Positions 12,523-23,710 of a stretch of 64,000 bases of DNA are shown one piece after another. The DNA is taken from NCBI RefSeq assembly GCF_001677475.2, contig NZ_CP015229.1. One strand, written 5' to 3'. Numbering within the stretch: the stretch's first letter is position 1; each line of letters opens with the position of its first letter. Source of the stretch: Escherichia coli. Lineage in GTDB: Bacteria; Pseudomonadota; Gammaproteobacteria; Enterobacterales; Enterobacteriaceae. The position numbers and the translations under genes were made by a program. The notes below the pieces were generated by a model, which made no database searches, had not been told where the DNA came from, and saw only the letters and a program-made list of their open reading frames with translations.

Positions 12523-13788
12523 ATGCCAACCTTCATTAAACTTCATTCATGGAAACCTTACACTCTGAAATCATCTATGATTTTAGAGATAATAACTTAT
12601 ATATTATGTTTTTTTTCATTAATAATTGCATTCGTCGATAACACATTCAGCATAAAGATGTATAACATCACTGCTATAACTTGCTTATTGGCGCTAATTT
12701 TACGTGGCAGACAAAAAAATTACAATATAAAAAATCTTATTCTGCCCCTTTCTATAATTATTATAGGCTTGCTTGATTTAATTTGGTATTCTATATTTAA
12801 AGTAGATAACTCGCCATTTCGTGCTACTTACCATAGTTATTTAAATACTGCCAAAATATTTATATTTGGTTCTTTTATTGTTTTTTTAGCACTAACTAGT
12901 CAGCTAAAATATAAAAAAGAGAGTGTATTATACATTTTATATTCTCTGTCATTTATAATTGCTGGATATGCAATGTATATTAATAGCATTCATGAATATG
13001 ACCGTATTTCTTTTGGTGTAGGAACGGCAACAGGAGCGGCATATTCAACAATGCTAATAGGGATAGTTAGTGGTGTTGCGATTCTTTATACTAAGAAAAA
13101 CCATCCTTTTTTATTTTTATTAAATAGTTGCGCGGTACTTTATATTCTGGCGCTGACACAAACCAGAGCAACACTACTCCTGTTTCCTGTAATTTGTGCT
13201 GTTACATTAATAGCTTATTATAATAAATCACCTAAGAAATATACTTCCACTATTGTTCTTCTAATTGCTATATTGGCTAGTATTGTAATTATATTTAATA
13301 AACCAATACAGAATCGCTATAATGAAGCATTAAATGATTTAAACAGTTATACCAATGCTAATAGCGTGACTTCCTTAGGTGCAAGGCTGGCAATGTACGA
13401 AATTGGTTTGGATATATTCAAAAAGTCACCTTTTTCATTTAGATCTGCAGAGTCGCGCGCTGAAAGTATGAATTTGTTAGTTGCAGAACACAACAGGCTA
13501 AGAGGGGCATTGGAGTTTTCTAACGTACACCTACATAATGAGATAATTGAAGCAGCGTCACTAAAAGGTCTGATGGGGATTTTTTCCACCATTTTCCTCT
13601 ATTTTTCACTATTTTATACAGCATATAAAAAACGCGCATTGGGTTTGTTGATATTAACGCTTGGCATAGTGGGGATTGGACTCAGTGATGTAATCATATG
13701 GGCACGCAGCATTCCAATTATCGTTATATCCTCTATAGTCCTCTTGCTTGTTATTAATAACCGCAACAATACTATTAATCAAGAATAG
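12523..13788 (+). CDS. waaL: O-antigen ligase (K-12-type WaaL)
   Basis: 421 aa polytopic membrane protein, AT-rich codon usage; position after waaC. Confidence 0.85.
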   Translation: MPTFIKLHSWKPYTLKSSMILEIITYILCFFSLIIAFVDNTFSIKMYNITAITCLLALILRGRQKNYNIKNLILPLSIIIIGLLDLIWYSIFKVDNSPFRATYHSYLNTAKIFIFGSFIVFLALTSQLKYKKESVLYILYSLSFIIAGYAMYINSIHEYDRISFGVGTATGAAYSTMLIGIVSGVAILYTKKNHPFLFLLNSCAVLYILALTQTRATLLLFPVICAVTLIAYYNKSPKKYTSTIVLLIAILASIVIIFNKPIQNRYNEALNDLNSYTNANSVTSLGARLAMYEIGLDIFKKSPFSFRSAESRAESMNLLVAEHNRLRGALEFSNVHLHNEIIEAASLKGLMGIFSTIFLYFSLFYTAYKKRALGLLILTLGIVGIGLSDVIIWARSIPIIVISSIVLLLVINNRNNTINQE

Positions 13789-13813
13789 ACAAGTTTAAGA
13801 AGTGAGTTTTAAC

Positions 13814-14887
13814 TCACTTCTTATCTATACAAATTAATCTCTTTACTGAATCAGTTAAAATTTCAGTATCGATATCTTTTATCGTAAGTGTTGGAGATAC
13901 TATTTGTATAGATTGATGATTATTCGGGGCCCAAATTAAATGTGAGGGATATTCTGGTGTACGTGAATTAGGATAAAATGCAAGAGTTGGTTTATGATAA
14001 GCAGTAGCGATATGAACAAGAGCAGTATCAACAGAAATGACAAAATCACTATACTTAGTCAACGCGACAGTATAAATAAACTCGTCAAATGGTAGTGTTT
14101 CAATTTCAGGTATTGGTATTGTCAATAAATCTTGCGGTAACCCAGTAAATATCACTCGATAATTCTCAAACTGGACTTTCACTTCTTGATATATAACTTT
14201 TATTTGCTCAAACGTAAGTCGGCATATTTTTTTTGCACCTAATGGATTAATGATGACTATCCTTGTATTTCCAATAAAATCTATTATTTTATTTTCAACA
14301 TCTACAGGCAAATGCAAGTCGTAGTCGGTGGAAAATTCACCCTCACCATAAATATGCTTCAGTATTTCTATTGCTCGTGTACTCATATGTTCTTTTAAAC
14401 ATTCATCATGGGGATGGTAAAATGAATAGTAACGCTTATACCATTGATCAAAACCCAGAATGTAAGAATATTTTAAACTTGATAATATTAAACTATGCTT
14501 AAATGAGGGCATAGTTTCAAAGGGGTCTAATACAATATCGAACTGTAAATCCCGCAGATGCTTACATAGAGTAAGCATTTTAAGGGAACCTGTTGATTCT
14601 TTAATACAGAATCCAAATATATTTTTATTGTTAGAGAGAAACTCCCCACCCTTTCTATTTGTGAGAATAGTTATTTTAACTCCTTTACTATAAAGCTCAC
14701 GATAAATCGAACTTAATACAATTAAATCACCGAGTTTATTATTATCATGAATGATAAGGCATGATTTAACTTGTGCGAGATCTGTAACTTGATTATTGAT
14801 TTTTTTACGAAATAAAAAAGAAAGAAAATTAATCTTGATTTTGTTTATATAAAATCTTTTCTTTTTGTGAAAAGTTCCTAAACGCAT
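13814..14887 (-). CDS. waaU: LPS core heptosyltransferase IV (GT9)
   Basis: 357 aa; terminal gene of the minus-strand waaQ operon; matches K-12 WaaU (RfaK) in size and position. Confidence 0.75.
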   Translation of the reverse strand: MRLGTFHKKKRFYINKIKINFLSFLFRKKINNQVTDLAQVKSCLIIHDNNKLGDLIVLSSIYRELYSKGVKITILTNRKGGEFLSNNKNIFGFCIKESTGSLKMLTLCKHLRDLQFDIVLDPFETMPSFKHSLILSSLKYSYILGFDQWYKRYYSFYHPHDECLKEHMSTRAIEILKHIYGEGEFSTDYDLHLPVDVENKIIDFIGNTRIVIINPLGAKKICRLTFEQIKVIYQEVKVQFENYRVIFTGLPQDLLTIPIPEIETLPFDEFIYTVALTKYSDFVISVDTALVHIATAYHKPTLAFYPNSRTPEYPSHLIWAPNNHQSIQIVSPTLTIKDIDTEILTDSVKRLICIDKK

Positions 14888-21526: not shown

Positions 21527-22643
21527 CTAAACCACCAGTAATGATATCTGCCGCTTTCTCCGGCAAGCTATACAAATCCTGAGTATCGGCGTAATACCGA
21601 GCATTCTCCGCCCAAGCCATGCGCAATGGAGATTGAGTTAACGCTTTACGTAAAACGTCATTTAATTGTTCCTGGGAGAAAGGTTCAGCGATGACCGTTC
21701 CACAATTAGCATCCGCAATATAATGCGCGTACCCACATACCGCTGTTGTTAAAACAGGTAATCCAGCAGTGATCGCTTCAAGAAGAACGATACCCGCGGC
21801 TTCCTGATAAGCGGGATGCAGTAATAAATCAGCGGCTGCCATTAATTCTGACACATCATTGCGACCGGAGAAGAAATGCACATTGCTCCGCACGCCGAGT
21901 TTTTCTGCCAGCGCTTCAAACTTTCGCGGTTTATCCTGCCCAACAACAAATAACAGCGTATTGTGACGTAATGATTCCGGTAACGATGCCAAAGCTTCAA
22001 TTGAGCGATCCACACCCTTACGGCCAAAATCTGATCCAACCTGCAGTAATAAGTTTTGTTGTTCAGTGATGCCATTTTTCTGGCGATAAATTTCACGACT
22101 GTTTGGGATTTGCGCGCTGTATTTTCTGTCCGGGTAGATACCAGGAGGAAGAATTTGAAAACGTTCTGGTTCAGTTTGGTAATGCTTCTGGAAATCGGCG
22201 ATTTGCTTATCCGTCAGCATCATGAGTTTCGTCGGTTTACCATGCTCGAAAGTCGCTCGCTCAAATGCAGCATAATGGCGATAGCGTGATGTTAAACGAT
22301 AGAACAAGCCCTTTTCTTGCGCCACTTTCTCGGCATAACAGACATCAGCGGCAAAATAAACATCCAGCCCTGGCATCTTATTAAAGCCAACAACCCGATC
22401 AGCGGGATGTCCCTTCAGATGGTTTTGAACCCAGGCATAATATTCTGCATTACGTCCATGGTTAGTATGGGATTTAACCGGTACGCGAATAAGCTCAAAT
22501 GCATCCGGGCAATCGCCTTCCCACGACTGTGTATATACCCGAACATGGTGGCCCCGTGTGGCAACTGTTGAGGCAATACGCATAAAGTCACGCTGTAACC
22601 CACCAAATGGAAAATATTTATATAAGCAAAACGCCACGATCAT
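21519..22643 (-). CDS. waaG: LPS glucosyltransferase I (GT4)
   Basis: 374 aa; [20 protein letters not shown]; overlaps waaQ stop by 4 nt. Confidence 0.9.
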
Positions 22644-23710
22644 AATTGTGCATTCCTGTCAGCTGAAGGGGCATCTTCTGGCAACAGCTTTTCCGTAGCG
22701 GCAATGACATCTTCCGCTGGAATAACAGAAAGATATTTTTTGTTGCGGTCAAGTTCGTGCCGGGTAGGCATTTTTTGATAATTCCCCGCCCAGAACTGAA
22801 TAATATTCTCGGTCCATGGACGCCAGAATACATGATCAGTAGCCCCAAACAGGCTAATAACTGGCGTGTTCACCGCCGCCGCAATATGCCCCGGCGCAGA
22901 ATCCACACCAATAAAGAGCACTGCATGATCAATTAATGCGCCCAGTTCAGGAAAACGTGTTTTACCGGCAAGGCCGGTAATAGGTTTTGTTTGGCAGCCT
23001 CGTGCAATTTCATCTACGCAAGCGAGATCATCTGCCGAAGGGCCACAAGTCAGCACAACCTGATAACCACGATGTTGCAACGCATCGATAACCATAGAAA
23101 ATTTATCGTTATCCCAGCACTTAAATAGCTGTCGGGCTGTCGGCTGGATGACGACATAATGATCTTTCACGCCCAGTGCATCTAATTCCTGGCGCATTTT
23201 CTTCCAGCAATCATCAGCATAACTCATTGTTGTTTCAGTATAAAAATCGGTAATACCTAATGACTCAAGGACCGACAAATTACGCTCAACAATATGTGTA
23301 CCGTGTATAGGCGCTAAGTGTGTAAAGCTTTTTTTCCAAATGCCATGCTGCCGATGAGCATAAAGCTGCGATATTTTCATCCGTGCAGGTAAACAACGTA
23401 CCAGCAGGGCCACCATCCACTGATCCGTAAGATTAATGACCAGGTCGTAATTATTCGCACGCAGAGTTTTTATCAGTGAAAGTGCATTTTTAATTTTATC
23501 GAATGTTCCCGCACCTTTATTGCTTATACCATAGAGTGCATTAATTTCTGGGTTTTCAGATAAAATCGGAATTGTATCCTGGTAAAGCAGCATATCGATT
23601 TTAGCATTGGGATAATTCTGCTTGAGTGTACTGATTACAGGAGTAGTTAATAACATATCTCCGTGATATCGCATCTTTATGACCAGGATTTTTCGAAATG
23701 GCTTTTCCAC
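22640..23710 (-). CDS. waaQ: LPS heptosyltransferase III (GT9)
   Basis: ORF from GTG at 23710 (356 aa) or internal Met at 23674 (344 aa); N-terminus ILVIKMRYHGDMLLTTP aligns with WaaC/WaaF N-termini. Confidence 0.85.
   Translation of the reverse strand: MEKPFRKILVIKMRYHGDMLLTTPVISTLKQNYPNAKIDMLLYQDTIPILSENPEINALYGISNKGAGTFDKIKNALSLIKTLRANNYDLVINLTDQWMVALLVRCLPARMKISQLYAHRQHGIWKKSFTHLAPIHGTHIVERNLSVLESLGITDFYTETTMSYADDCWKKMRQELDALGVKDHYVVIQPTARQLFKCWDNDKFSMVIDALQHRGYQVVLTCGPSADDLACVDEIARGCQTKPITGLAGKTRFPELGALIDHAVLFIGVDSAPGHIAAAVNTPVISLFGATDHVFWRPWTENIIQFWAGNYQKMPTRHELDRNKKYLSVIPAEDVIAATEKLLPEDAPSADRNAQL

Follow-up and report, generated by a model that had tools for sequence, protein, structure and literature searches.

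We examined a 64,000-nt stretch of Escherichia coli DNA (the window) in which positions 12523–23710 hold a cluster of genes for the core oligosaccharide of lipopolysaccharide (LPS). With high confidence, this locus is the chromosomal waa (rfa) cluster that encodes the K-12 chemotype of the core. A K-12 core gene cluster is in itself known biology and leaves the understanding of LPS core genetics unchanged. The type of core determines the O-antigens that may be ligated, the binding of phages and colicins to rough or semi-rough cells and the reaction with anti-core antibodies, so that a correct core-type call is a useful annotation; the lineage of the window types as K-12 despite ∼7% divergence from K-12 itself.

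Core type of the waa cluster

An earlier note on this DNA had proposed the order Q-G-P-(S)-B-O-J-Y-Z-U on the minus strand with waaL on the plus strand, and the open reading frames (ORFs) lie exactly where it placed them. Between waaC and waaA, gene order and strands are collinear with strain MG1655 and with annotated loci that are 99.5% identical to the window. The bracketed waaS sits at the expected position, but the gene is broken and persists only as a frameshifted pseudogene.

The cluster was compared with one reference locus per core type: MG1655 for K-12, CFT073 for R1, SCU-118 for R2, Sakai for R3 and TUM14771 for R4. Strain BHUCD01, whose waa genes are not identical to those of MG1655, was the first K-12 stand-in and was replaced by MG1655 in the type comparison and the identity profiles; the flank-protein identities given below were still measured against BHUCD01. 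When WaaL and the outer-core transferases were aligned with the R1–R4 and K-12 references, none grouped with a non-K-12 type. WaaL (12523–13788, plus strand; a 421-aa K-12-type O-antigen ligase; Pfam Wzy_C, 52.2 bits) is 92.6% identical to the MG1655 protein and 91.7–93.8% identical to other K-12-type alleles. Its identity to the R1 and R4 ligases is 30% and 32%, respectively, and no significant match was obtained with the R2 and R3 reference ligases (E-values >5).

The last gene of the minus-strand operon is waaU (13814–14887), not waaK, waaD, waaV or waaX, and it is waaU that separates K-12 from R2. Its product, a putative heptosyltransferase IV of glycosyltransferase family 9 (GT9; Pfam Glyco_transf_9), is 92–97% identical to K-12-type WaaU (92% for MG1655), and no orthologue was found in the R1, R2, R3 or R4 reference loci. 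The other matches of WaaU were weak (24–30% identity, ≤37 bits) and were to WaaQ, a GT9 paralogue that all core types have, K-12 included. WaaB and WaaZ are, besides K-12-type loci, common to R2 alone among R1–R4. WaaO and WaaJ are 93–97% identical to K-12-type proteins and 40–57% identical to their counterparts in R1, R3 and R4; the best matches of WaaJ in these three clusters, at 40–44%, were WaaJ in R3 and WaaT in R1 and R4. The gene contents that define R1 (waaT-W-V), R4 (waaT-W-X) and R3 (waaJ-D) were not matched in the comparisons with CFT073, TUM14771 and Sakai.

The nine typing primers published by Trofimova et al. 2025 (PMC13293308) gave the same answer when their sites were searched for with up to 4 mismatches allowed. 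All four control loci (R1, R2, R3 and K-12) were assigned to their correct types, and the R4 locus was matched by the R4 primers. In the window, the K12-F site (14541–14561, in waaU) and the K12-R site (15972–15994, in waaY) were found with 0 mismatches, predicting a polymerase chain reaction product of 1,454 bp compared with 1,442 bp in MG1655. For R1-F, R1R4-R, R2-F, R3-F, R3-R and R4-F, no site with ≤4 mismatches was found in the window. The conclusion of the earlier note that the core is K-12, and not R1 or R3, was thus borne out by WaaL, WaaU, gene content and primers alike. Its choice of R1 and R3 as the types to exclude was less apt: the real near neighbour is R2, as R2 shares the genes Q-G-P-...-B-O-J-Y-Z.

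The relationship to R2 is also visible in the alleles themselves. The segment 15501–16000, in waaZ, is 97.8% identical to the R2 strain compared with 87.6% to MG1655, and the waaZ of the window carries a perfect R2-R primer site that is absent from MG1655. At 16501–17000, the identity is 97.8% to MG1655 and 87–88% to R32 and R2. Because identity to the various K-12-type and R2 alleles changes from one segment to the next in this way, the cluster is, on these alignments, a mosaic of alleles from the K-12 and R2 families that ends in a K-12 terminus. Hybrids are documented (PMC13293308), and the genes from waaZ to waaQ are common to the K-12 and R2 clusters at similar identity, so we considered a K-12/R2 hybrid, comparable to those of Trofimova et al. 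2025, that makes a core unlike both parents. This is very unlikely for the window, where K-12-type genes specify both the end of the outer core and the ligase: waaU was found, a waaK homologue and the R2-F site were not, and WaaL bears no similarity to that of R2. Moreover, WaaZ works on the inner core in both types, and an R2-like waaZ should therefore not alter the outer-core chemotype.

Three points weigh against assignment to the K-12 chemotype. The transferases share 88–97% protein identity with those of K-12, and the donor and acceptor specificities of the outer-core enzymes are assumed to be the same. WaaZ lacks 14 C-terminal residues (see below), and its retained function is argued from the length of the R2 homologue and the profile score. 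Finally, scans of 12000–24300 were at background, with 47 consensus promoter-like sites against 47.6 expected from shuffled sequence and 9 terminator-like sites against 8.5 expected, so that the operon structure relies on homology with K-12.

Genes of the cluster and its flanks

Gene names were assigned by synteny and by reference to MG1655 and to loci annotated in RefSeq that share 99.5% identity with the window. Beyond waaU, all on the minus strand, the first genes are waaZ (14967–15782), predicted to encode a 271-aa transferase for the third 3-deoxy-D-manno-oct-2-ulosonic acid (Kdo III; NCBIfam WaaZ, 539.7 bits, cut-off 473); waaY (15854–16552), for a predicted core heptose II kinase (NCBIfam RfaY equivalog, 394 bits); and waaJ, or waaR (16570–17586), for a predicted α-1,2-glucosyltransferase of family GT8 (Pfam Glyco_transf_8 and 8C domain) that is 94% identical to MG1655 WaaJ. 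These are followed by waaO (17626–18645), for a predicted GT8 α-1,3-glucosyltransferase (NCBIfam PRK15171, 577.7 bits) 97% identical to MG1655 WaaO, and waaB (18645–19724), for a predicted 1,6-galactosyltransferase (NCBIfam PRK09922, 603 bits) 100% identical to the WaaB of strain 19KM1831. The waaS pseudogene (19768–20692), a broken rhamnosyltransferase gene, was recognized by alignment to intact 311-aa alleles. The remaining genes are waaP (20729–21526), for a predicted core heptose I kinase (NCBIfam RfaP, 462.5 bits); waaG (21519–22643), for a predicted glucosyltransferase I of family GT4 (Pfam Glycos_transf_1, 145 bits); and waaQ (22640–23710), the first gene of the operon, for a predicted heptosyltransferase III (NCBIfam RfaQ, 657.8 bits). 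The waaQ ORF has a GTG start at 23710, and the MG1655-style ATG start lies at 23674.

Equivalog models of NCBIfam were matched above their cut-offs by WaaZ, WaaY, WaaO, WaaB, WaaP and WaaQ, and Pfam models supported WaaL (Wzy_C), WaaU (GT9), WaaJ and WaaO (GT8) and WaaG (GT4). With the exception of waaJ, each intact gene scored above a curated NCBIfam or Pfam cut-off; WaaJ passed the Pfam GT8 models only, its NCBIfam match being to a WaaO-type model at 275 bits, below the cut-off of 461.

On the left, the conserved inner-core genes hldD-waaF-waaC (9569–12513, plus strand) form the recombination flank, with proteins 97.5–100% identical to those of BHUCD01. On the right, the conserved flank begins with the divergent Kdo transferase gene waaA (24115–25392, plus strand), whose product is 99.5–99.8% identical to WaaA of BHUCD01 and 19KM1831; coaD adjoins waaA.

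Several smaller features were seen in this region. Inside waaL, an 81-aa antisense ORF (13347–13592, minus strand) occupies the site of yibX, a small-protein gene of K-12. The 25-bp gap between the convergent stops of waaL and waaU is spanned by a perfect inverted repeat, GAAGTGAGTT..AACTCACTTC (13797–13820), which may be a bidirectional terminator. Between kbl and hldD there is no htrL (yibB) gene but a 213-bp spacer (9356–9568); htrL is also absent from CFT073, TUM14771 and 19KM1831 and is present in MG1655 and Sakai. A 7-bp deletion (GAGCTCT) at 10499–10506 leaves only 2 nt from the hldD stop to the waaF start and also takes out an AAGAG Shine-Dalgarno-like motif that is present in other strains.

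Lesions in waaS and waaZ

The waaS reading frame is broken at 20051, where 11 bp have been deleted between direct repeats of TTAAT; two ORFs of 133 aa (20291–20692) and 105 aa (19768–20085) are left. In waaZ there are three TCTTA units at 14955–14969 rather than two; this 5-bp gain (14965–14969) places the stop after residue 271 and removes the 14 C-terminal residues, KKMEYKASTDSYAN. Up to residue 271 the protein is identical to that of 19KM1831. The match to the NCBIfam WaaZ model spans profile positions 1–265 of 269, and R2 WaaZ is naturally 269 aa long; the shortened protein is thus probably still functional. Inactivation of waaZ was considered and is unlikely, as the tail that was lost is non-conserved and R2 WaaZ also terminates there.

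Both lesions were absent from the related complete genomes that were fetched or were judged by block length. Several related complete genomes show multiple ‘frameshifted’ waa genes that resemble long-read homopolymer errors, and the source genome of the window is apparently not among the complete RefSeq genomes searched, observations that would fit sequencing or assembly errors in a strain whose K-12 cluster is intact. There is next to no chance that this is so. The lesions are a deletion between direct repeats and the gain of a 5-bp unit, not homopolymer slips, and both recur in contigs of separate origin with 100% identity to the window (L017, L018, L020 and the NCBI assembly L021), which come from independent samples and different sources; L017 stands for 8 samples and is identical over 20.8 kb. 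The 133-aa waaS fragment also has several GenBank accessions and was found on 18 contigs, and proteins exactly matching WaaL and WaaZ of the window are in GenBank as ANO91572.1 and ANO91574.1. The waaS and waaZ lesions are genuine and lineage-specific.

WaaS is a rhamnosyltransferase and WaaZ the Kdo III transferase of stress-induced minor glycoforms; the absence of either one causes no envelope stress (PMC6358824, which is also our source for the roles of RfaH and RirA mentioned below). An intact waaS was not found in the window, and it is not a defining trait of the outer-core type, since WaaS makes a non-stoichiometric inner-core substitution (PMC6358824). The predicted outcome of the lesions is loss of the rhamnose substitution only, and the lineage of the window should be without rhamnose-bearing minor glycoforms.

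Base composition, gene overlaps and operon control

The earlier note had described the block as more AT-rich than its flanks, and a plot of GC content in 1-kb windows shows the drop clearly. Values were 0.30–0.38 at 12–21 kb, compared with 0.49–0.55 on the hldD–waaC side and 0.51–0.54 on the waaA side. The boundary is abrupt at waaL (0.32) and gradual at the other end: GC content is 0.31 in waaU, 0.35 in waaZ, 0.33 in waaY, 0.34 in waaJ, 0.36 in waaO and 0.40 in waaB, then 0.44 in waaP, 0.46 in waaG and 0.44 in waaQ. In the flanking genes it is 0.51 (hldD), 0.54 (waaF), 0.51 (waaC) and 0.54 (waaA).

Overlaps of 4, 8 and 1 nt between adjacent genes had also been claimed, and all three were verified. 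The overlap is ATGA for waaQ/waaG (4 nt) and ATGGTTGA for waaG/waaP (8 nt), and for waaB/waaO the waaB stop lies on the waaO start in TAATG (1 nt). The waaQ/waaG and waaG/waaP overlaps recur in the R1, R3 and R4 reference loci and are a feature common to all core types (PMC13293308). From these overlaps, translational coupling of the gene pairs is a reasonable expectation.

The leader of waaQ contains a JUMPstart element (23758–23796, minus strand; Rfam RF01707, 53.1 bits, gathering score 35). It holds the ops octamer GGCGGTAG, which is unchanged in the alignment with MG1655, 19KM1831 and CFT073, and rirA is annotated in MG1655 at the place equivalent to this leader. By analogy with K-12 (PMC6358824), the element would be the loading site of RfaH, and read-through of the AT-rich operon would be RfaH-dependent.

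A rare allele exchanged by homologous recombination

In the comparison set of 5,426 complete RefSeq E. coli genomes, a K-12-type block was found in 1,030 (19%), in line with the 18.4% reported for the K-12 core (PMC13293308). Only 8 of the 5,426 match the block of the window at ≥99% (99.3–99.5% identity). The other K-12-type alleles are more distant, with identities of 92.6% for canonical K-12, ∼94% for a small group and 88.7% for the Ecol_AZ146 type.

One of these eight genomes, 19KM1831, was aligned along the window. The mismatch rate was 2.25% at 1–11450, 0.48% at 11451–23830, 8.9% in the waaQ–waaA spacer (23831–24480), 0.87% at 24481–33000 and 2.57% at 33001–57900. The fall on the left, at ∼11450, lies inside the 3′ end of waaF and waaC. 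In the divergent promoter region of the spacer (23831–24030) there are two haplotypes, one in the window and MG1655 and the other in 19KM1831 and CFT073, and this switch of haplotype marks a recombination breakpoint. Identity of the flanks of the window to 19KM1831 and to references for phylogroups A, B2 and E is 97.4–98.2%, and the references are 97.1–98.1% identical among themselves. The divergence of the flanks thus equals that from one phylogroup to another, and a position of the window outside E. coli, which was considered, is not supported. No complete RefSeq E. coli genome exceeded ∼98% over the backbone (1–12500 and 24100–64000), though the waa block has matches at 99.5%. Evidently, the block is a variable cassette that has been moved between backgrounds by homologous recombination, which is the accepted picture for this locus.

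A low-GC block with an abrupt border at waaL (GC content 30–40% in the block against 51–54% in the flanks), which differs from a few unrelated genomes by 0.48% where the flanks differ by ∼2.3–2.6%, might instead be a recently acquired foreign island, like the type III secretion system (T3SS) island described below, rather than an old resident polymorphic locus. We regard this as extremely unlikely. A waa cassette is found at exactly this waaC–waaA site in every E. coli examined, whether R1, R2, R3, R4 or K-12, and a second Escherichia species (E1V33) likewise has a cluster of K-12 type. The block showed no integrase, tRNA or repeat borders, and the tract that is closer than the flanks reaches into conserved genes, to ∼33 kb, which is the pattern of homologous allelic replacement. 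Exchange of a resident cassette remains the reading that we adopt.

Elsewhere in the flanks, the region 34700–36500 (ligB and the end of yicG) is at most 94.0% identical to any of 5,424 complete E. coli genomes, all of which fall in the 90–95% band, well under the 97–98% of the remaining flanks. It may be an import from outside the sampled E. coli. A comparable dip, to 92.6–92.9%, occurs at 42001–43000.

Pairing with the eip/eilA island

The earlier note had placed a pathogen-type island with a T3SS translocon beside the core block. The cluster exists, but it is not adjacent to the block: it starts at 56384, 32.7 kb past waaQ. It is 97.6% identical to annotated loci, its ORFs have the sizes and order expected of the eip/eilA selC-B locus, and it extends from 56384 to 64000, where it runs off the window. 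The genes are eicA (56384–56881), eipB (57129–58910), eipC (58923–60053), eipD (60097–61446) and eilA (61649–63346), with a 60-aa ORF between eicA and eipB, and the start of a giant adhesin gene (air/eaeX/iatC) lies on the minus strand from 63398 and also runs off the window. The products given in annotated loci are a SycD/LcrH chaperone, a YopB/SseC (SipB-like) translocon subunit, an IpaD/SipD tip protein, EilA and IatC. The label ‘pathogen-type’ was overstated, as the locus is also found in commensals, and isolates that carry it were obtained from a gull, from a healthy student and by rectal swab from a dog. The translocon genes exist as sharply different alleles, since the segment 58001–59544 (the 3′ end of eipB, and eipC) is 74–79% identical to 19KM1831 and 93–99.6% identical to an O169:H41 strain.

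The selC gene (51807–51897) is followed by only ∼640 bp and then by setC, yicL, nlpA and yicS. The locus of enterocyte effacement was rejected as an identity for the island: its T3SS-like genes belong to the SipB/C/D type (eip) and are accompanied by eilA and iatC, and selC runs into setC-yicL-nlpA. The selC-B locus of enteroaggregative E. coli (EAEC) 042 and sequence type (ST) 69, which is associated with the second type III secretion system of E. coli (ETT2), is reported to be absent from phylogroup B2 and ST131 (PMC7058095). The same arrangement, eicA-eipB-eipC-eipD-eilA-air(eaeX/iatC) at a position past selC-setC-yicL-nlpA-yicS, is seen in the window; the selC-A insertion is not present there.

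Co-occurrence with the K-12-type core was counted with a chimeric waaL plus eipB query, which matched 1,756 records in 1,768 places. The difference between these totals means that at most 12 genomes hold both genes, and together K-12-type waaL and eipB were found in 11–12 of the 5,426 complete genomes (∼0.2%). From ∼1,030 K-12-type and ∼740 eipB-positive genomes, ∼140 would be expected under independence. Among the matches listed, the eleven double carriers all have window-like waaL alleles (≥96.7% identity), and none has a canonical K-12 or Ecol_AZ146-type allele. The island is usually paired with R4, R3 or R1 cores, and the eip-positive strain TUM14771 was checked and is R4. K-12 cores occur mainly in phylogroups A and B2 (PMC13293308), and the deficit fits the literature because these main K-12-core phylogroups lack selC-B. 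The suggestion that the pairing of core type and island would be useful for strain typing therefore holds, with 11–12 genomes observed against ∼140 expected. K-12-type waaL with eip is a fair and usable lineage marker, and the rare genotype can flag this group of lineages.

The window-like allele family combines proteins 88–97% identical to those of K-12 with an R2-like waaZ and, in the lineage of the window, the loss of waaS, and these alleles are confined to eip-positive backgrounds outside phylogroups A and B2. There is a slim chance that the family constitutes a distinct, unrecognised K-12 sub-chemotype and not a silent variant. Were this so, altered decoration of the core could change the substrate range of the ligase, phage receptor properties and reactivity with core antibodies.

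Proposed operation of the pathway

The order of enzymes proposed here is taken from the established K-12 pathway. RNA polymerase would start the minus-strand operon at waaQ and, with RfaH loaded at the ops/JUMPstart element, would read through it. WaaG would add glucose I, and WaaP, WaaY and WaaQ would decorate the heptose region. WaaO would then add glucose II and WaaJ(R) glucose III, with the galactose branch supplied by WaaB. WaaU would add heptose IV, where WaaL, encoded on the opposite strand, would ligate the O-antigen, and WaaZ would add a non-stoichiometric third Kdo. With waaS inactivated, minor glycoforms containing rhamnose should be missing; the main core and the attachment of O-antigen should stay unaffected. 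The AT-rich cassette itself is one of several alternatives at a fixed site, and lineages swap it through homologous recombination within the flanks, which are conserved.

Comparison with known core loci

The waa locus of MG1655 (b3619–b3633) has the same gene set, order and strands as the window, the same 4-, 8- and 1-nt overlaps and AT-richness, a JUMPstart/ops leader and a yibX-like antisense ORF inside waaL. It differs in that nucleotide identity across the block is ∼92.6% and protein identity 91–97%; in the window, waaS is frameshifted, WaaZ is 14 residues shorter, WaaL has 421 aa rather than 419, and htrL is absent.

Much closer are the eight carriers of the variant K-12-type allele, namely 19KM1831, 2014C-3075, O158:H23 CFIAFB20140388, MEW, 18KM2445, DETEC-S792, AF40 and SCU-301, which share 99.3–99.5% identity with the window across the whole 11.2-kb block. 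The O158:H23 genome has already been flagged as having an atypical K-12-like locus (PMC13293308). At least seven of the eight also have eipB, the exception being DETEC-S792, which gave a single place. The carriers examined differ from the window in lacking the 11-bp waaS deletion and the third TCTTA unit; their chromosomal flanks are ∼2.2–2.6% diverged from it, and 19KM1831 has the other haplotype of the waaQ–waaA spacer.

When GTDB representative genomes were scanned with WaaL, only two matches were obtained. Escherichia sp. E1V33 has a K-12-type waa cluster 97.2% identical to MG1655, with a WaaL 94% identical to that of the window. A contig from a metagenome-assembled genome labelled ‘uncultured Bacilli bacterium’ is 99.98% identical to the MG1655 waa locus, which suggests contamination or mis-binning. 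In a separate comparison, strain A34 matched in waaB/waaO only (80%), a result that points to a core locus other than the five standard ones.

The R2 locus of SCU-118 shares waaQ, G, P, B, O, J, Y and Z with the window in the same order, at 88–98% protein identity, and its waaZ allele is the closest to that of the window. It differs in three ways: waaU is replaced by waaK, for a GlcNAc (N-acetylglucosamine) transferase; its WaaL is unrelated; and wabA, a GT8 gene, sits at the position of waaS. In SCU-118 the GT8 gene that stands in place of waaS lies at 9318–10298.

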